A stretch of DNA of 7,703 nt from IMG/VR virus record IMGVR_UViG_2778261465_000006, one strand, 5' to 3'. The position numbers were made by a program, and so were the translations under genes. Each line of letters begins with the position of its first letter. Position 1 is the first letter of the stretch. Below the pieces are notes generated by a model that ran no database searches, was not told the origin of the DNA, and was given only the letters and a program-made list of their open reading frames with translations. This document shows positions 1 to 7,703 of the stretch, piece after piece. This stretch comes from a virus (Duplodnaviria; Heunggongvirae; Uroviricota; Caudoviricetes).

Positions 1-61
1 CGTGATGCGTTTTAATGATTTTGTAATTTTCGTATTTGATAATTGTATGATGCTTTCAGCT

Positions 62-95
62 ACGCCAGAATAATCGCGGCGTTTTTCTTTTTGAA
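62..95 (+). terminator. Candidate intrinsic terminator upstream of the lysis cassette (tR'-like or end of an upstream gene)
   Basis: Stem acgcc (62-66) / ggcgt (78-82) with an 11-nt loop, followed by tttttcttttt. Weak stem, so low confidence. Confidence 0.25.
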
Positions 96-187
96 TAGAT
101 GTTCAAGCCTTACGCTAATGTAACTTCTATACCTTTCCTCTTCGTTCCGAACCGTGTACACCATCCGTTATTTGCGGAGGTGAGGCT

Positions 188-403
188 ATGAAATCCATGG
201 ATAAGTTAACAACGGGCATTGCCTACGGCACCTCCGCAGGCAGTGCTGGCTACTGGTTTTTACAGCTGCTCGATAAAGTCACGCCCTCACAGTGGGCAGC
301 AATAGGTGTGCTGGGTAGCTTGGTATTTGGCCTGCTGACGTACCTGACAAACCTTTATTTCAAGATTAAAGAAGATAAGCGCAAGGCTGCGAGAGGTGAA
401 TAA
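188..403 (+). CDS. essD: Class II holin / pinholin (phage 21 S21 / EssD family), 71 aa, with dual-start motif
   Basis: ORF begins MKSMDK (Met1-Lys2-Ser3-Met4 dual start giving antiholin 71 and holin 68). Two hydrophobic helices ([15 protein letters not shown]; [17 protein letters not shown]) and a charged C-tail. Strong SD GGAGGTGAGG upstream. Stop overlaps the next start (TAATG). Confidence 0.9.
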
Positions 404-900
404 TGCCTCCATCATTACGAAAAGCCGTTGCTGCTGCTATTGGTGGCGGAGCAATTGCTATAGCATCAGTGTTAATCACTGGCCCAAGTGGTAACGATGG
501 TCTGGAAGGTGTCAGCTACATACCATACAAAGATATCGTTGGCGTATGGACTGTATGTCACGGGCATACAGGAAAAGACATCATTCCCGGTAAAACGTAT
601 ACCGAAGCAGAATGCAAAGCCCTCCTGAATAAAGACCTTGCCACGGTAGCCAGACAAATTAACCCGTACATCAAAGTCGATATACCGGAAACAACGCGCG
701 GCGCTCTTTACTCGTTCGTCTATAACGTGGGCGCAGGCAATTTCAGAACATCTACTCTTCTTCGCAAAATAAACCAGGGCGATATCAAGGGCGCATGTGA
801 CCAGCTACGTCGCTGGGCATACGCTGGCGGTAAGCAATGGAAAGGCCTGATGACTCGTCGTGAGATTGAGCGTGAGGTCTGTTTGTGGGGGCAACAATGA
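403..900 (+). CDS. rrrD: SAR (signal-anchor-release) endolysin, T4-lysozyme-like GH24 muramidase, 165 aa
   Basis: N-terminal Gly/Ala-rich weakly hydrophobic SAR segment ([20 protein letters not shown]). Catalytic triad spacing E35...D44...T50 as in phage 21 R. Start overlaps holin stop; stop overlaps Rz start (ATGA). Confidence 0.9.
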
Positions 901-1364
901 GCAGGGTAACCGCGATTATCTCCGCTCTGGTTATCTGCATCATCGTCTGCCTGTCATGGGCTGTTAATCATTACCGTGATAATGCAATCGCCTACAAAGA
1001 ACAGCGCGATAACAAGGCCAGTGAACTGGAGAAGGCGAACGCCACCATTACTGACATGCAGCAGCGCCAGCGTGATGCTGATGCACTCGATGATAAATAC
1101 ACGAAGGAGTTAGCTGATGCGAAAGCTGAAAATGATGCTCTTCGGCGCAAGCTTGATAATGGTGGTCGGGTGCTCGTCAAAGGAAAATGCCCTGTGCCAT
1201 CCTCAGCCGAAACCTCCAGCGCCTCCGGCATGGGCAATGATGCCACCGTCGAACTCTCTCCAGTTGCTGGACGAAACGTTCTCGGTATCCGGGACGGAAT
1301 TATCCGCGACCAAACAGCACTGAGAACGCTTCAGGAATACATCAGGACGCAATGCCTTCGATGA
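897..1364 (+). CDS. rzpD: Rz i-spanin (inner-membrane spanin subunit), about 155 aa
   Basis: Start ATG at 897 overlaps endolysin stop. N-terminal TM helix ([18 protein letters not shown]), coiled-coil-like periplasmic domain, embedded Rz1 in the +1 frame. The track ORF from 885 uses an upstream GTG; ATG 897 is preferred. Confidence 0.85.
1117..1323 (+). CDS. rzoD: Rz1 o-spanin (outer-membrane lipoprotein), embedded in Rz in the +1 frame, 68 aa
   Basis: MRKLKMML start as in lambda Rz1. Lipobox VVGC. Pro-rich mature region ([11 protein letters not shown]). SD AAGGAG 7 nt upstream of ATG 1117. Confidence 0.85.
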
Positions 1365-1538
1365 TAGCGATAATTTTACTCATCATCCTTCACATCTGGC
1401 TCTGTAGACAGGGTGGTGCTCACTTCTGGAGTGAATCCAGATTAAACATCTCATTGCTGATGCTTGATATTGAGCATTTTGCGCGCGGTAAGGGGCTGCG
1501 TTGAGATAAGAACCAGTCATTACAAATACCAGGATTTA

Positions 1539-1561
1539 GCCTCGCATTCGCGGGGCTTTTT
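1539..1561 (+). terminator. Rho-independent terminator downstream of Rz/Rz1
   Basis: Stem gcctcgc (1539-1545) / gcggggc (1550-1556), 7 bp with one G-U pair; loop attc; followed by ttttt (1557-1561) then att. Confidence 0.6.
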
Positions 1562-1573
1562 ATTGCCATTACA

Positions 1574-1603
1574 AAAGCCACTTCCTACAGAGTGGCTTTG
1601 ATA
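1574..1603 (-). terminator. Candidate terminator for the minus-strand accessory operon
   Basis: Perfect 9-bp inverted repeat aaagccact (1574-1582) / agtggcttt (1591-1599) with an 8-nt loop. On the minus strand the stem is followed by UUUUGUAAU. Lies downstream of the minus-strand ORFs. Confidence 0.4.
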
Positions 1604-1645
1604 ATGGTTTATACCCTACACGGGATAACTTAACTGATATCCCTT

Positions 1646-1810
1646 TTAAAGGATAAAGGTATTCAAGCCTGACACATCATGCGCTGTATCGTCGCCGTAT
1701 TCCCGTATTAACAGAGACCGTAGCCCGACGGGGAACTCCTTCTGCGCGAGTGTGCGGGAATAATCAAAAACGATGCACACCGGGGTTACCGGGTACACAT
1801 ATTTCATCAT
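1646..1810 (-). CDS. Possible small ORF (54 aa, MMKYVYPVTPVCIVFDYSRTLAQKEFPVGLRSLLIREYGDDTAHDVSGLNTFIL), hypothetical
   Basis: Below the 60-aa track cutoff; found by manual translation. Sits where bor lies in lambda/DLP12 but is not Bor-like. No convincing SD. In frame with ybcV beyond its stop codon. Could be a gene remnant. Confidence 0.2.
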   Translation of the reverse strand: MMKYVYPVTPVCIVFDYSRTLAQKEFPVGLRSLLIREYGDDTAHDVSGLNTFIL

Positions 1811-1855
1811 GCCAGCGAGTCCGGTTCTGGCACGGAAGAAACCGGACGTTATGAT

Positions 1856-2266
1856 TTAGTGCGGAAATATTTGTGTAGTGTTCTGAATGTTCTCAGTAAA
1901 GAGTAATGAATTATCAAAGGTATAGTAATACCTTTTGTTTTCGTGGATATTTGTAATCCATCTGAAAACCCCTGCTGTAGCAAGATTTTTCCTGTATTCG
2001 TAAAATGATAACTCTCCTGATTTGAATCCTTTTAAGGTGGCTTCTATAAGGCATTTATTTTTTGAAAATCTTACATTTACAACCTTACCCTGTCCTTTTA
2101 TTAAAACCGTATTATCGTTTTCAAGAACAAGATGAATATTCTCTGTAGCTAAATAGTAAATGTAATGTGAGACATTGTGACGTTTTAGTTCAGAATAAAA
2201 CCAGTGATAGTTTAAATTATTTCGCACTTTATCGAATATTTGTTTAAAAATGGCAACCTGAGCCAT
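1856..2266 (-). CDS. ybcV: DUF1398 family protein (YbcV/YdfO-like prophage accessory protein), 136 aa from the second Met
   Basis: Translation [16 protein letters not shown]...[25 protein letters not shown] matches my recollection of DLP12 YbcV and Qin YdfO. SD-like GGAAGG 7 nt upstream of ATG at 2266. The track ORF begins 5 codons earlier at 2281. Confidence 0.8.
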
Positions 2267-2322
2267 TGTAGTACCTTCCATGTGATATGAGGGGCGTAGT
2301 CTGCACGATTATCTAAATTGCT

Positions 2323-2556
2323 TCAATCTGGTCTGATCTGTTTTCTGAGCAATTCAGTAATGTCACTCTTTTCTTTGTTTGCTTCAGGAGAAACTCTTTT
2401 TTCTGAGCACAGTCTCCGGCGGCAGGCTTCAATGACCCAGGCTGAGAAATTCCCGGACCCTTTTTGATCAAGAGCGATGTTAATTTGTTCAATCATTTGG
2501 TTAGGAAAGCGGATGTTGCGGATTGTTGTTCTGCGGGTTCTGTTCTTCGTTGACAT
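2323..2556 (-). CDS. ylcI: Small ribbon-helix-helix (Arc/MetJ/CopG-type) DNA-binding protein, YlcI/DUF3950-like, 77 aa
   Basis: RHH signature: basic N-terminus, beta-strand IRNIRF, helix A MIEQINIALDQ, G-x-S/N turn (KGSGNFS), helix B AWVIEACRRRL, then a charged C-tail. Located immediately upstream of cos/nu1 on the opposite strand, as I recall for ylcI in DLP12. The symbol is tentative. Confidence 0.6.
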   Translation of the reverse strand: MSTKNRTRRTTIRNIRFPNQMIEQINIALDQKGSGNFSAWVIEACRRRLCSEKRVSPEANKEKSDITELLRKQIRPD

Positions 2557-2755
2557 GAGGTTGTCCCGTATTTAGTGTCGCTGATTTGTATTGTCTGAAG
2601 TTGTTTTTACGTTAAGTTGATGCAGATCAATTAATATGATACCTGCGTCATAATTGATTATTTGACGTGGTTTGATGGCGTAGATGCACGTTGTGACATG
2701 CAGATGATAATTATTATCATTTTGCAGGTCCTTTCCGGCGATCCGACAGGTTACG

Positions 2756-2767
2756 GGGCGGCGACCT
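2756..2767 (+). other. cosN 12-nt cohesive-end segment GGGCGGCGACCT (terminase nick sites flank it)
   Basis: Exact lambda cohesive-end sequence, directly visible. Confidence 0.85.
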
Positions 2768-2805
2768 CGCGGGTTTTCGCTATTTATGAAAAATTTCCGG
2801 TTTAA

Positions 2806-2916
2806 GGCGTTTCCGTTCTTCTTCGTCATAACTTAATGTTTTTATTTAAAATACCCTCTGAAAAGAAAGGAAACGACAGGTGCTGAAAGCGAGCTTTTTG
2901 GCCTCTGTCGTTTCCT
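2806..2916 (+). promoter_or_regulatory. cosB small-terminase binding repeats R3 (2808-2814), R2 (2869-2879, inverted), R1 (2905-2915), with an AT-rich IHF-like spacer
   Basis: Heptamer CGTTTCC occurs at 2808-2814 and 2909-2915, and inverted as GGAAACG at 2869-2875. R2 ggaaacgacag is the exact reverse complement of R1 ctgtcgtttcc. The arrangement matches the lambda R3-I1-R2-R1 layout. Confidence 0.7.
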
Positions 2917-2944
2917 TTCTCTGTTTTTGTCCGTGGAATGAACA

Positions 2945-3490
2945 ATGGAAGTCAACAAAAAGCAGCTGGCTGACATTTTCGGTGCGAGTATCCGTACCAT
3001 TCAGAACTGGCAGGAACAGGGAATGCCCGTTCTGCGAGGCGGTGGCAAGGGTAATGAGGTGCTTTATGACTCTGCCGCCGTCATAAAATGGTATGCCGAA
3101 AGGGATGCTGAAATTGAGAACGAAAAGCTGCGCCGGGAGGTTGAAGAACTGCGGCAGGCCAGCGAGGCAGATCTCCAGCCAGGAACTATTGAGTACGAAC
3201 GCCATCGACTTACGCGTGCGCAGGCCGACGCACAGGAACTGAAGAATGCCAGAGACTCCGCTGAAGTGGTGGAAACCGCATTCTGTACTTTCGTGTTGTC
3301 GCGGATCGCAGGTGAAATTGCCAGTATTCTCGACGGGCTCCCCCTGTCGGTGCAGCGGCGTTTTCCGGAACTGGAAAACCGACATGTTGATTTCCTGAAA
3401 CGGGATATTATCAAAGCCATGAACAAAGCAGCCGCGCTGGATGAACTGATACCGGGGTTGCTGAGTGAATATATCGAACAGTCAGGTTAA
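2945..3490 (+). CDS. nu1: Terminase small subunit (lambda gpNu1 / NohD family), 181 aa, apparently intact
   Basis: Translation MEVNKKQLADIFGASIRTIQNWQEQGMPVLRGGGKGNEVLYDSAAVIKWYAERD... matches lambda Nu1 essentially residue-for-residue by recollection. Gene A start lies inside its 3' end, as in lambda. Confidence 0.92.
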   Translation: MEVNKKQLADIFGASIRTIQNWQEQGMPVLRGGGKGNEVLYDSAAVIKWYAERDAEIENEKLRREVEELRQASEADLQPGTIEYERHRLTRAQADAQELKNARDSAEVVETAFCTFVLSRIAGEIASILDGLPLSVQRRFPELENRHVDFLKRDIIKAMNKAAALDELIPGLLSEYIEQSG

Positions 3491-3698
3491 CAGGCTGCGG
3501 CATTTTGTCCGCGCCGGGCTTCGCTCACTGTTCAGGCCGGAGCCACAGACCGCCGTTGAATGGGCGGATGCTAATTACTATCTCCCGAAAGAATCCGCAT
3601 ACCAGGAAGGGCGCTGGGAAACACTGCCCTTTCAGCGGGCCATCATGAATGCGATGGGCAGCGACTACAGCCGTACTGGATGCACTGGAGAAGCATGA
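3465..3698 (+). pseudogene. A: Terminase large subunit gpA, N-terminal fragment (first 68 codons) joined out of frame to gene U sequence
   Basis: MNISNSQVNRLRHFVRAGLRSLFRPEPQTAVEWADANYYLPKESAYQEGRWETLPFQRAIMNAMGSDY matches the lambda A N-terminus. After codon 68 (3666-3668) the sequence is gene U read out of frame, stopping at 3696-3698. The ATPase and nuclease domains are absent. Confidence 0.85.
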
Positions 3699-4041
3699 CA
3701 CCGGGGCGACGCTTTTTGATGGTCGCCCCGCTGTTTTTGATGAGGCGGATTTTCCGGCAATTGCCGTTTATCTCACCGGCGCTGAATACACGGGCGAAGA
3801 GCTGGACAGTGATACCTGGCAGGCGGAGCTGCATATTGAAGTTTTCCTGCCTGCTCAGGTGCCGGATTCAGAGCTGGATTCGTGGATGGAGTCCCGGATT
3901 TATCCGGTGATGAGCGATGTCCCGGCACTGTCAGATTTGATCACCAGTATGGTGGCCAGTGGCTATGACTACCGGCGCGACGATGATGCGGGCCTGTGGA
4001 GTTCAGCCGATCTGACTTATGTCATTACCTATGAAATGTGA
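3649..4041 (+). pseudogene. U: Tail terminator protein gpU lacking its first 8 codons (U-derived from about 3670); an in-frame ATG at 3649 is supplied by gene A sequence
   Basis: AVLDALEKHDTGATLFDGRPAVFDE...[11 protein letters not shown] matches lambda U residues 9-131. The N-terminal MRWAATT is A-gene sequence read in the U frame. Confidence 0.8.
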
Positions 4042-4048
4042 GGACGAT

Positions 4049-4531
4049 ATGCCTGTACCAAATCCAGTAATGCCGGTGAAAGGGGCCGGGACCACACTGT
4101 GGGTTTATAAGGGGAACGGTGACCCTTATGCGAACCCGCTTTCAGACGTTGACTGGTCGCGTCTGGCTAAAGTTAAAGACCTGACGCCCGGCGAACTGAC
4201 CGCTGAGTCCTATGACGACAGCTATCTCGATGATGAAGATGCGGACTGGACTGCGACCGGGCAGGGGCAGAAATCTGCCGGAGATACCAGCTTCACGCTG
4301 GCGTGGATGCCCGGAGAGCAGGGGCAGCAGGCGCTGCTGGCGTGGTTTAATGAAGGGGATACCCGTGCCTATAAAATCCGCTTCCCGAACGGCACGGTCG
4401 ATGTGTTCCGCGGCTGGGTCAGCAGTATCGGTAAGGCGGTGACGGCGAAGGAAGTGATCACCCGCACGGTGAAAGTCACCAACGTGAGACGTCCGTCGAT
4501 GGCAGAAGATCGCAGCACGGTAACAGCGGCA
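4049..4531 (+). pseudogene. V: Major tail protein gpV, truncated after about codon 161 and joined out of frame to K sequence (the ORF runs on to 4681 in the wrong frame)
   Basis: [22 protein letters not shown]...[11 protein letters not shown] matches lambda V. Downstream residues ([12 protein letters not shown]...) are gene K read out of frame. SD GAGGA upstream of ATG 4049. Confidence 0.85.
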
Positions 4532-4809
4532 ATCTGGAGGCCACAGGGCTGTATCAGGTGCCGTTGTCAGCGGCGCAGCCGGGCGATGTGCTGCTGTGCT
4601 GTTTTGGTTCATCGGTGCCGAATCATGCCGCCATTTACTGTGGTGATGGCGAGCTGCTGCACCATATTCCTGAACAACTGAGCAAACGAGAGAGGTATAC
4701 CGACAAATGGCAGCGACGCACACACTCCCTCTGGCGTCATCGGGCATGGCACGCATCTGCCTTTACGGGGATTTGCAACGATTTGGCCGCCGCATCGATC
4801 TTCGTGTGA
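4531..4809 (+). pseudogene. K: Tail tip assembly protein gpK, C-terminal fragment of about 92 codons (NlpC/P60-like region), no start codon of its own
   Basis: Frame-1 translation [70 protein letters not shown]... matches the lambda K C-terminus. Confidence 0.8.
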
Positions 4810-5378
4810 AAACGGGGGCTGAAGCTATCCGGGCGCTGGCCACACAGCTCCCGGCGTTTCGTCAGAAACTGAGCGACGGCTGGTATCAGGTACGGATTGC
4901 CGGGCGGGATGTCAGCACGTCCGGATTAACGGCGCAGTTACATGAGACTCTGCCTGATGGCGCTGTGATTCATATTGTTTCCAGAGTCGCCGGGGCCAAG
5001 TCAGGTGGTGTATTCCAGATTGTCCTGGGAGCTGCCGCCATTGCCGGATCATTCTTTACTGCCGGAGCCACCCTTGCAGCATGGGGGGCAGCCATTGGGG
5101 CCGGTGGTATGACCGGCATCCTGTTTTCTCTCGGTGCCAGTATGGTGCTCGGTGGTGTGGCGCAGATGCTGGCACCGAAAGCCAGAACTCCCCGTACACA
5201 GACAACGGATAACGGCAAACAGAACACCTATTTTTCCTCACTGGATAACATGGTTGCTCAGGGCAATGTTCTGCCTGTTCTGTACGGTGAAATGCGTGTG
5301 GGGTCGCGGGTGGTTTCTCAGGAGATCAGCACGGCAGACGAAGGGGACGGTGGTCAGGTTGTGGTGATTGGTCGCTGA
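4707..5378 (+). CDS. I: Tail assembly protein gpI, 223 aa, full length
   Basis: MAATHTLPLASSGMARICLYGDLQRFGRRIDLRVKTGAEAIRALATQLPAFRQKLSDGWYQVRIAGRD... matches lambda I over its full length. Start overlaps the end of the K fragment, as in lambda. Confidence 0.88.
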   Translation: MAATHTLPLASSGMARICLYGDLQRFGRRIDLRVKTGAEAIRALATQLPAFRQKLSDGWYQVRIAGRDVSTSGLTAQLHETLPDGAVIHIVSRVAGAKSGGVFQIVLGAAAIAGSFFTAGATLAAWGAAIGAGGMTGILFSLGASMVLGGVAQMLAPKARTPRTQTTDNGKQNTYFSSLDNMVAQGNVLPVLYGEMRVGSRVVSQEISTADEGDGGQVVVIGR

Positions 5379-5396
5379 TGCAAAATGTTTTATGTG

Positions 5397-5420
5397 AAAC
5401 CGCCTCCGGGCGGTTTTGTC
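5397..5420 (+). terminator. Terminator-like hairpin in the I-J intergenic region
   Basis: Stem aaaccgcc (5397-5404) / ggcggttt (5409-5416), loop tccg, followed by tgtcgttt. The U-tract is partly inside the stem, so function is uncertain. Confidence 0.3.
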
Positions 5421-5438
5421 GTTTATGGAGCATGACGA

Positions 5439-5666
5439 ATGGGTAAAGGCAGCAGTAAGGGGCATACCCCGCGCGAAGCGAAGGATAACCTGAAATCCAC
5501 GCAGCTGCTGAGTGTGATCGATGCCATCAGCGAAGGGCCGATTGAAGGTCCGGTGGATGGATTAAAAAGCGTGCTGCTGAACAGTACACCGGTGCTGGAC
5601 AGTGATTCCCGCCGTCACATGCCGGGACCATCACCGTGTATGAAGATTCCCGACCCGGTACGCTGA
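5439..5666 (+). pseudogene. J: Tail tip/host-specificity protein gpJ, N-terminal fragment (about 54 codons) joined out of frame to stf sequence
   Basis: MGKGSSKGHTPREAKDNLKSTQLLSVIDAISEGPIEGPVDGLKSVLLNSTPVLD matches the lambda J N-terminus. The following SDSRRHMPGPSPCMKIPDPVR is stf sequence read out of frame. More than 1000 codons of J are missing. Confidence 0.85.
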
Positions 5667-7119
5667 ATGATTTTCTCGGTGCCATGACGGAGGATGATGC
5701 CCGTCCTGAGGCACTGCGCCGTTTTGAACTGATGGTGGAAGAGGTGGCGCGTAACGCGTCCGCGGTGGCACAGAACACGGCAGCCGCGAAGAAGTCAGCC
5801 AGCGATGCCGGCACATCAGCACGTGAGGCGGCAACCCATGCGACTGATGCTGCAGGCTCAGCACGCGCAGCCAGCACGTCAGCCGGACAGGCCGCGTCGT
5901 CGGCTCAGTCAGCATCTTCCAGCGCAGGAACGGCATCAACAAAGGCCAGTGAAGCATCGAAAAGTGCTGCTGCTGCAGAGTCCTCAAAAAGCGCGGCAGC
6001 TACCAGTGCCGCTGCGGCGAAAACGTCAGAAACGAATGCGGCAGCGTCACAACAATCAGCAGCCACTTCTGCATCCGCCGCGACCACGAAGGCGTCAGAA
6101 GCAGCCACCTCAGCCCGGGATGCGGCGGCCTCAAAAGAGGCAGCGAAATCATCAGAAACGAACGCATCATCAAGCGCCAGTAGTGCCGCTTCCTCGGCAA
6201 CGGCGGCAGGCAATTCCGCGAAGGCGGCAAAGACGTCTGAGACAAACGCCAGGTCTTCTGAAACGGCAGCGGGACAGAGCGCCTCGGCTGCGGCAGGCTC
6301 AAAAACAGCGGCTGCGTCGTCTGCCAGTGCCGCGTCAACAAGTGCCGGGCAGGCCTCAGCCAGTGCCACCGCCGCCGGAAAATCGGCAGAAAGTGCCGCA
6401 TCGTCTGCTTCAACAGCCACAACGAAGGCTGGCGAAGCCACTGAACTGGTTATTGGAACCAAACTGTCCGCAAGTCTGAACGGTAATGCATTAACAGCAA
6501 CAAAGCTGCAAACGCCAAGACGGGTTTCTGGTGTTGAGTTTGATGGTTCCAAAGATATTACTTTATGCGTGGCTGGACGATTAAGGGCAAGCCCGCCAGT
6601 GGTCGTGCCGTATTGTCTCAGGAACAGGACGGCATAAAATCGCATACCCACAGCGCCAGCGCATCCAGTACTGATTTGGGGACGAAAACCACATCGTCGT
6701 TTGATTACGGCACTAAATCCACGAATAACACTGGTGCGCATACCCATAGTTTAAGTGGCAGCACGAATGCAGCTGGTAATCACAGCCATAGAGATGGCCG
6801 TCGATTTAACCCCAGTGTTTTTAAAGATACTTATCAATATGGTTATACAAGCTCAGGTCAAAATACCTGGGGTGTACAAGGCTCAGTAGGTATGTCTACG
6901 GGGGCGTTAGCTAATACCAGTACAGATGGTAACCATAGCCACTCACTGTCCGGCACAGCAGCATCTGCAGGTGCACACGCACATACTGTCGGTATTGGTG
7001 CACACACGCACTCCGTTGCGATTGGTTCACATGGACACACCATCACCGTTAACGCTGCTGGTAACGCGGAAAACACCGTCAAAAACATCGCATTTAACTA
7101 TATTGTGAGGCTTGCATAA
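5606..7119 (+). pseudogene. stf: Side tail fibre gene stf: lacks its N-terminus and start, has a frame break at about 6563-6565, and retains the His-rich C-terminal tip domain
   Basis: Frame-2 segment (5606-6637) FPPSHAGTITVYEDSRPGTLNDFLGAMTEDDARPE... plus Ala/Ser-rich shaft matches the lambda Stf N-terminal half from about residue 55. Frame-1 segment (6565-7119) [34 protein letters not shown]...[18 protein letters not shown] matches the Stf C-terminus. The two segments are in different frames. Confidence 0.8.
5760..6420 (+). repeat. Low-complexity Ala/Ser/Thr-rich coding repeats of the fibre shaft (recurring AAKTSETNA-type motif)
   Basis: Motif K-[TS]-SETNA appears at least three times in the translation (near 6016, 6141, 6230) within a GC-rich, compositionally biased stretch. 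This explains the many overlapping spurious ORFs on both strands. Confidence 0.5.
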
Positions 7120-7703
7120 TGGCATTCAGAATGAGTGAACAACCACGGACCATAAAAATTTATAATCTGCTGGCCGGAACTAATGAATTTATTGGTGAAG
7201 GTGACGCATATATTCCGCCTCATACAGGTCTGCCAGCAAACAGTACCGATATTGCACCGCCAGATATTCCGGCTGGCTTTGTGGCTGTTTTCAACAGTGA
7301 TGAGTCATCGTGGCATCTCGTTGAAGATCATCGGGGAAAAACCGTCTATGACGTGGCTTCCGGCGACGCGTTATTTATTTCTGAACTTGGCTCGTTACCG
7401 GAAAATGTCACCTGGTTATCGCCGGAAGGGGAATATCAGAAGTGGAACGGCACAGCCTGGGTGAAGGATACGGAAGCAGAAAAACTGTTCCGGATCCGGG
7501 AGGCGGAAGAAACAAAAAACAGCCTGATGCAGGTAGCCAGTGAGCATATAGCGCCACTTCAGGATGCTGTAGATCTGGAGATCGCAACGGAGGAAGAAAC
7601 CTCATTGCTGGAAGCCTGGAAAAAATATCGGGTGTTGCTGAACCGTGTTAATACAACAACTGCACCGGATATTGAATGGCCAACAGTACCCATTATCGAA
7701 TAG
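7119..7703 (+). CDS. tfa: Tail fibre assembly chaperone Tfa, 194 aa, full length
   Basis: [62 protein letters not shown]... matches lambda Tfa throughout. ATG overlaps the stf stop (TAATG). SD-like GTGAGG upstream. Stop TAG at 7701-7703. Confidence 0.9.

Follow-up and report, generated by a model that had tools for sequence, protein, structure and literature searches.

What are two small genes doing between the lysis cassette and the cohesive-end site (cos) of a lambdoid prophage, on the strand opposite to the late operon? The question is raised by the viral record IMGVR_UViG_2778261465_000006, a stretch of 7,703 nt (hereafter the window, meaning the whole of the DNA analysed), in which a 77-residue member of the YlcI/YnfO family is followed on the same strand by a 136-residue DUF1398 protein. 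An earlier sequence-only reading had seen two or three genes here running antiparallel to the late operon, and had suggested either a toxin-antitoxin-like or exclusion module or a regulator plus cargo. Two of these open reading frames (ORFs) are real and had been correctly placed, as shown by profile matches and by the calls of the Prokaryotic Genome Annotation Pipeline (PGAP); the third, of 54 residues (1810-1646), is an open frame only. We think it probable that the two are annotated accessory genes of lambdoid phages in the arrangement of the Qin prophage of E. coli K-12, with a fixed gene for a DNA-binding protein beside a swappable cargo slot, and that they do not form an obligate pair. 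The feature as such is already known and annotated, and functionally uncharacterised. Its parts in the window are as follows.

2323-2556, minus strand: YlcI/YnfO-family gene, 77 aa (Pfam DUF3950, NCBIfam NF041551, PGAP)
2326-2342: candidate PdhR box, a degenerate version of the one within the 3' end of K-12 ynfO (sequence compared with the box AAcaGGTcagACCAgaT in PMC7660256)
2267-2322, minus strand: 56-nt spacer between both genes, holding a GAAGG ribosome-binding site and, by a terminator scan, no terminator-like site
1856-2266, minus strand: DUF1398 gene, 136 aa, of the YdfO/YbcV/lambdap78 family (Pfam, PDB, PGAP)

The evidence that carries our reading is comparative. Loci were collected from IMG/VR with four YlcI/YnfO alleles as queries, which gave 226 distinct contexts and 48 distinct proteins. 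Across these 48 proteins the first 50 residues are almost invariant, and the small gene without exception runs antisense to the first gene for packaging, be it of the Nu1 type (a median of 389 nt between the two start codons) or of the HNH/TerS type (42 nt to the HNH endonuclease of the HK97-like HNH-TerS-TerL set). After the motif 'ACRRRL' the proteins continue into at least seven unrelated tail classes, each with its own downstream content. The 77-aa class, to which the window belongs, has DUF1398 directly downstream in 99 of 100 contexts and is the only class with an adjacent DUF1398; the 64-aa class of lambda and DLP12 is followed by the opposite-strand gene ybcW/p79, then DUF1398, with bor downstream; and the 61-, 66-, 70-, 74- and 79-aa classes have no gene at all before the convergent Rz. 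DUF1398 is thus found downstream in only two of the at least seven tail classes, and the small gene stands without it in 81 of 180 contexts. A phage database has the small gene in 154 records and DUF1398 in 43, with the small gene solo in about 110 of the 154, and in complete E. coli genomes the N-domain occurs at 9,861 places and prophage-type DUF1398, counted by a match covering at least 80% of the gene, in 3,011 genomes.

The limits of the conserved unit are sharp. Homology between Nu1-type and HNH-type phages ends upstream at the start codon, and homology between tail classes ends after codon 50; the conserved unit is therefore exactly the 150-nt coding sequence of the N-domain. In the window protein, residues 1-50 are this N-domain and residues 51-77 a variable tail of 'Qin-type'. 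Comparison of the first 50 codons of the window with those of the other allele classes gave proportions of 0.4-0.7 for synonymous differences (pS) and 0.03-0.09 for nonsynonymous ones (pN), values which indicate that the N-domain is under strong purifying selection and that the small gene is a functional protein-coding gene. The C-terminal tail, as judged from the alignments, is hypervariable from a mosaic junction directly behind residue 50 onwards, and is no conserved partner-binding domain. The sequence-only reading had likened this charged tail to that of an antitoxin, a comparison against which its hypervariability speaks.

The family identities themselves are secure. The small protein matches Pfam DUF3950 (PF13132; 5e-21, 74.7 bits, cut-off 25), the NCBIfam model YlcI_YnfO_N (NF041551; 35.7 bits, cut-off 30) and PHROG 949 (8.8e-33), and PGAP names the 77-aa product 'YlcI/YnfO family protein' in more than 1,000 genomes. 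The 136-aa protein matches Pfam DUF1398 (PF07166) over the whole profile (3e-43) and is 80% identical to PDB entry 2HH8, a nuclear magnetic resonance (NMR) structure of E. coli YdfO. PGAP places its start at 2266, with a GAAGG Shine-Dalgarno sequence 7 nt upstream, and we prefer this 136-aa start because the ribosome-binding site is present only there, the alternative 141-aa start at 2281 having no Shine-Dalgarno sequence upstream. The family has, as the sequence-only reading stated, no established function. With a GC content of 30-36% against about 50% in the flanks, and a pN/pS of about 0.29 over 32 distinct alleles, the DUF1398 gene has the look of dispensable, low-GC cargo under purifying selection. 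The deviant GC content, the insertion between Rz and cos and the strong hairpins at the downstream end together give the unit the features of a moron, so that the earlier description of an accessory, moron-type cassette in the Rz-cos slot stands.

The mechanism we favour may be set out in these terms. The small protein would bind DNA as a dimer through a ribbon-helix-helix (RHH) N-domain and act as a small transcriptional repressor. Its gene is a fixed landmark: even where the terminases are unrelated, it stands beside the first packaging gene and antisense to it. A recombination junction right after codon 50 opens a variable slot for cargo. In the window this slot holds the low-GC DUF1398 gene, probably co-transcribed with the small gene, the presumed transcript ending at the hairpin at 1566-1607. 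The DUF1398 gene would be dispensable cargo, which the prophage probably expresses under the control of the host, and a benefit to the host may be supposed. Indirect support for a moron promoter comes by analogy from the K-12 homologues, whose expression outside lytic growth is suggested by three reports: RNA-seq in which ybcW-ylcI appears as a convergent excludon, the induction of ydfO by an imidazolium ionic liquid, and the PdhR dependence of ybcV (PMC7660256). The two genes would then be linked by position and not by obligate partnership.

The RHH assignment is plausible and not established. The protein's sequence pattern (a basic arm, NIRFP, a helix, a G-x-N-F-S turn and a second helix) fits the RHH scheme, and an AlphaFold2 model places helices at 19-32 and 37-52 after a non-helical, extended NIRFP segment. 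In hhalign comparisons the protein reached 50% probability (E 1.6e-4) against RHH sequences, with NIRFP in register with the NLRWP strand of Arc. The topology and the choice of Arc repressor (1PAR) as top fold match are compatible with the label that the sequence-only reading had given; no significant sequence or fold score was obtained.

Several results weigh against the explanation we favour, and some of these bear on the fold. A profile search of PDB and Pfam returned no RHH family match at E up to 10, the top Foldseek matches (Arc at E 3.5 and RHH-like TCP domains) lie in a non-significant range of E 3.5-9, the model has a moderate mean predicted local distance difference test score (pLDDT) of 65.7, and the RHH sequences used for hhalign were a small set entered by hand. 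Since no sequence profile reaches an RHH family and the fold hits are not significant, an Arc/Mnt-like RHH remains a plausible description of the N-domain, based on modelling. Others bear on regulation: when the upstream regions of Nu1-type and HNH-type phages were compared for a common operator, no 9-mer or palindrome was found in both, and a promoter scan found no match to the sigma-70 consensus on the minus strand.

The remaining objections concern the partnership itself. Co-occurrence, which the sequence-only reading had put forward as a check on the pairing, held in one direction and failed in the other: prophage-type DUF1398 is preceded by the small gene in every one of the 193 contexts with enough flank (directly in 173, with ybcW between in 20), but the reverse does not apply, as the count of small genes without DUF1398 shows. 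Within the 77-aa class, moreover, the tail evolves non-neutrally, with a pN/pS of about 0.15 on few sites. Because of these two observations a specific functional link between the small gene and DUF1398 is conceivable on sequence grounds. A one-sided association, for its part, is expected equally from a toxin-antitoxin pair and from cargo in a slot beside a fixed landmark. We note also that in the 77-aa class the DNA of the tail includes what lies immediately in front of DUF1398, with the PdhR box known from K-12 reports.

What, then, of the alternatives? One is a dedicated operon of regulator and cargo, in which the RHH protein controls DUF1398 and itself and neither product is toxic. The two genes do share a strand, with a 56-nt spacer and no terminator between them, an arrangement kept in at least 173 distinct contexts, and the inverted repeat ATCAATTA-N17-TAATTGAT at 2626-2658 lies upstream of the small gene. 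This proposal must nonetheless accommodate a near-identical DNA-binding domain with entirely different downstream genes or none, and upstream regions that share no sequence between Nu1-type and HNH-type phages. In K-12, furthermore, DUF1398 genes are reported to be PdhR-dependent, with a PdhR box directly upstream, which suggests a host-controlled promoter of their own; both ybcV and ybcW are reported as dependent on PdhR, and the listed box lies within the 3' end of ynfO and shortly precedes ydfO (PMC7660256). The window version of this box reads ...GATcagACC... where K-12 has ...GGTcagACC..., so that one half-site is broken, and this change from GGT to GAT coincides with an I/V polymorphism in the tail (RKQIRPD vs RKQVRPD). 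A self-contained operon of this kind we consider unlikely, though in its looser form of 'regulator plus cargo' the idea comes close to the comparative result and was the better of the two readings offered earlier.

Alternatively, the small protein might serve the packaging boundary or the interplay between helper phages and satellites, with DUF1398 an unrelated neighbour; the roles one can imagine include silencing of the terminase genes in lysogens, an action at cos or close to it, and mimicry or targeting by satellites. In both of two unrelated terminase systems it has the same place beside the first packaging gene, homologues in satellites carry a fused small-terminase DNA-binding helix-turn-helix (HTH), and YlcI/YnfO genes are listed in capsid-forming phage-inducible chromosomal islands (PICIs) of Enterobacter. 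Yet position alone may simply mark a permissive insertion site, the Rz-cos interval of lambda is non-essential according to the literature column of a CRISPR interference (CRISPRi) table, no cis element common to both packaging types was found near the gene, and the gene is intact where the packaging genes have been destroyed (the window, DLP12 and Qin). We regard this explanation as improbable too. A bolder version would see in YlcI/YnfO a core regulator of lambda-like phages that has gone unnoticed, working at the packaging boundary and not as the regulator of a moron; in lysogens it might shut off terminase expression or transcription through cos, or, given the diverged satellite copies fused to the small-terminase HTH in the position of a master regulator, it might join in helper-satellite cross-talk. 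We hold this to be quite unlikely.

The weakest of the alternatives is the type II toxin-antitoxin or abortive-infection pair, with DUF1398 as a toxin that the RHH protein neutralises via its C-tail while autoregulating the operon. Gene order and sizes fit the usual layout, but the 56-nt spacer leaves the genes neither overlapping nor abutting; the invariable presence of the small gene upstream of prophage-type DUF1398, the near-perfect pairing of the 77-aa tail with an adjacent DUF1398 and the non-neutral evolution of that tail are what a pair would produce, but the association of tail and DUF1398 is explained equally well by the physical linkage of contiguous DNA, and the tail, which starts at a mosaic junction, lacks conservation from one class to the next. 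Most tail classes and most phage records have the small gene solo, and in lambda and DLP12 the pair cannot be one operon because an opposite-strand gene separates them. ycgX, a DUF1398 paralogue (43% identical), lies beside bluR in K-12 without a YlcI/YnfO partner, and almost all E. coli genomes give matches of the ycgX type. That ybcV is listed with yoeB and hokA, both known toxins, in a screen of over-expressed genes for effects on glycogen, is to be set against a knock-down of lambdap78 by CRISPRi that left plaquing unaffected, and against the production of YdfO for the NMR structure 2HH8, presumably alone and in what we infer was E. coli. Searches of the DUF1398 protein against toxin and defence families in Pfam, NCBIfam and PADLOC gave no match, PADLOC returning nothing for the small protein or the 54-aa frame and only a chance-level Csx23 hit for DUF1398 (E 0.025). 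With the small gene mostly without DUF1398, the pair split in lambda and DLP12 and no toxin or defence family in sight, we judge the toxin-antitoxin or exclusion module of the sequence-only reading very improbable.

Some further reports on DUF1398 deserve mention. The labels 'head protein' (RefSeq and PHROGs; PHROG 413) and 'putative envelope protein' appear to be unsupported annotation carry-over, because CRISPRi shows lambdap78 to be dispensable and its gene runs antisense to the late operon. ybcV was up-regulated in a sabinene-tolerant strain. A second-hand claim that over-expression of YdfO confers resistance to oxidative stress was not found in the main text of the paper cited for it. Apparent DUF3950-DUF1398 'fusion' proteins (P0134, 233 aa, and P0130, 177 aa), which would have spoken for a functional link, were discarded, as in these the TGA stop of ynfO has been read as tryptophan; the artefact shows as ...RPDWSNLD..., and one such cluster comprises 761 member sequences. 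The AlphaFold2 model of the DUF1398 protein was too poor for a fold search. In a scan of a genome collection for distant DUF1398 contexts we met mostly contamination of unrelated 'genomes' by lambda control DNA: contigs from about 3.5 kb upwards with the lambda right end (L014-L041), in assemblies of Pseudomonas, Kitasatospora, Cohnella, Flavobacterium and others, most likely stem from control DNA that entered the sequencing runs. The corresponding metagenome scan for distant contexts returned only close relatives.

The surroundings of the two genes identify the window as a lambdoid prophage of the Escherichia type, and contain these features.

188-403, plus strand: P21-type holin (ORF and family matches)
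403-900, plus strand: lysozyme (ORF and family matches)
885-1364, plus strand: Rz/Rz1 (ORF and family matches)
1538-1607: back-to-back hairpins between the convergent lysis and accessory units
1646-1810, minus strand: 54-aa open frame
1679-1786: conserved non-coding element of about 110 nt, beneath the 54-aa frame
2557-2755: region upstream of the small gene, homologous to the lambda right end (sequence)
2726-2732: AGGTCCT, which we take to be a cosQ-like site by likeness to lambda
2756-2767: GGGCGGCGACCT, presumably the cosN cohesive-end sequence by likeness to the lambda left end, then the cosB region and Nu1/nohD (sequence)
2945-3490, plus strand: Nu1-type small terminase gene, nohD (Pfam PF07471, 2.5e-100)

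At the downstream end, a plus-strand terminator at 1538-1557, followed by the T-run TTTTTATT, stands back-to-back with a hairpin at 1566-1607 whose 17-nt arms (1566-1582 and 1591-1607) are 88% complementary, and therefore a bidirectional stop separates the two convergent transcription units. The hairpin at 1566-1607 folds with z-scores of -5.1 and -6.6, and none of 200 shuffled sequences folds as well. It had been noticed earlier as a hairpin at 1574-1599; it is real, and wider than described. The 54-aa frame is probably not a gene, to judge from its sequence: it has no PGAP call in the top-matching genomes and no family match in four libraries, and in homologous copies the ATG is absent or a stop follows it, with indels of 1 nt and 9 nt breaking the frame. 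Beneath it lies the conserved element, which occurs in 422 phage records and 4,774 of the 5,426 E. coli genomes, also on plasmids, and is mostly unannotated. Its place is between Rz and the packaging genes, and immediately upstream of bor in those phages that have a bor gene, with copies for instance at 46866-46996 of lambda and in two of the survey loci (L134, 1501-1608; L003, 3961-4081). Two ideas about this region were rejected. As a structured RNA it has no Rfam match, folds no better than shuffles and shows one compensatory pair only; as a necessary partner or target of the small gene it is ruled out, since the 74-aa class and one quarter of the 77-aa class lack it. A 50-aa hypothetical protein called by PGAP at 1352-1504 on the plus strand overlaps the end of Rz, has no family match and is a doubtful call.

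On the other side, the region at 2557-2755 is conserved among Nu1-type phages and is unrelated to the upstream region of HNH-type phages, and the cos of the window is an exact lambda-like sequence. Just upstream of the cosQ-like site a 17-bp near-palindrome, ATGATAATTATTATCAT (2704-2720), is kept in Nu1-type phages; it overlaps the region's best sigma-70-like match, GTGACA-16-TATCAT, which lies on the plus strand and is directed to cos and Nu1.

The lysis genes and nohD are DLP12-like. Downstream of Nu1 (3465-7703) deletions have turned the prophage into a patchwork: an N-terminal piece of terminase A runs into gpU, after which come a truncated gpV, the C-terminal end of K, gpI, part of J fused with a side tail fibre rich in alanine and serine, and Tfa. 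The stretch 1350-2950 is present to at least 80% in 1,014 of the 5,426 complete E. coli genomes, and PGAP annotates both antisense genes in genomes 99.9% identical over this interval; none of the complete E. coli genomes in the collection has 80% of the whole window in one piece. Neither bor nor the ybcW/lambdap79 gene was found in the window, so that the absence of bor, as remarked earlier, is correct.

As a candidate toxin-antitoxin or exclusion module the locus matters little, its families being annotated in lambda, in K-12 and in thousands of E. coli genomes. Its value lies elsewhere: both families are functionally blank despite their presence in the best-studied phage, and the YlcI/YnfO family, found in most E. 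coli genomes, supplies a small protein fixed at the lambda-like packaging boundary and echoed in satellites.

How does the locus compare with systems already described? As with type II antitoxins such as RelB, ParD and CcdA, a gene for a small, putatively RHH protein whose tail is charged precedes another small gene, but here the partner is not conserved, the tail is hypervariable, the downstream protein lies outside the toxin families and the spacer is long. Arc and Mnt of phage P22 are closer in build, being small and having an extended N-terminal segment followed by two helices, as in the window protein, whose NIRFP resembles their NLRWP and NFRMP and for which Arc is the best fold match. 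The likeness has its limits, in that the scores are not significant, the window protein has no known operator, and Arc belongs to the immI region of P22 whereas the gene here stands at the packaging boundary.

A second point of comparison is offered by PICI-like satellites of E. coli, in which one or two members of the family lie next to int-alpA, divergent from the replication and packaging operon. By analogy this is the position of a master regulator, and two perfect 12-bp palindromes, TGGTACGTACCA (4545 and 4578), precede the satellite DUF3950 gene; position and palindromes support a role for the family in DNA-binding regulation. One satellite copy is fused to the N-terminal HTH of the Terminase_2 small subunit (45.4 and 29.1 bits, cut-off 26.1). 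Two loci (L126 and L127; E. coli CP027459 and AP026754, about 1-7321) show a PICI-like satellite inside terL of a BP-4795-like prophage, after codon 92, with int-alpA, two DUF3950 genes (one of them the fusion to the Terminase_2 HTH), a primase, TerS and a capsid gene.

Lambda and DLP12, with the order bor - lambdap78/ybcV - lambdap79/ybcW - ylcI - cos, have both families in the same Rz-cos interval and on the same strand, and their upstream region and cos are homologous to those of the window; they differ in having bor, a 64-aa tail and the opposite-strand gene lambdap79/ybcW between the two, the latter as the sequence-only reading had correctly stated for K-12 DLP12. That lambda, too, has both genes had escaped that reading. 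In lambda itself (NC_001416) a ylcI-like ORF at 48139-48303 on the minus strand is unannotated in both RefSeq and GenBank, and annotated in other lambda-like records; its product is 93% identical to the window protein over 55 residues.

The direct pairing of the two genes in the window departs from this and is the arrangement of Qin. At nohA, ynfO-ydfO of K-12 shows the same families, order, strand and position divergent from a Nu1-type gene, with a spacer of 57 nt vs 56 nt, and a small protein of the same 77-aa tail class (cluster representatives 94-95% identical). The DUF1398 protein of the window is only about 75-80% identical to YdfO, and downstream Qin has gnsB, ynfN and cspI where the window has the conserved non-coding element and terminators. 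That these layouts can be exchanged is indicated by a 2026 preprint, in which lambdap79 is reported to trigger the Vulcan NADase defence system and lambda escapers to delete lambdap79 by recombination with Qin. The small gene thus anchors a cargo slot that also holds bor and this reported Vulcan trigger, and the recombination of the escapers with Qin converts the lambda layout into the layout of the window.

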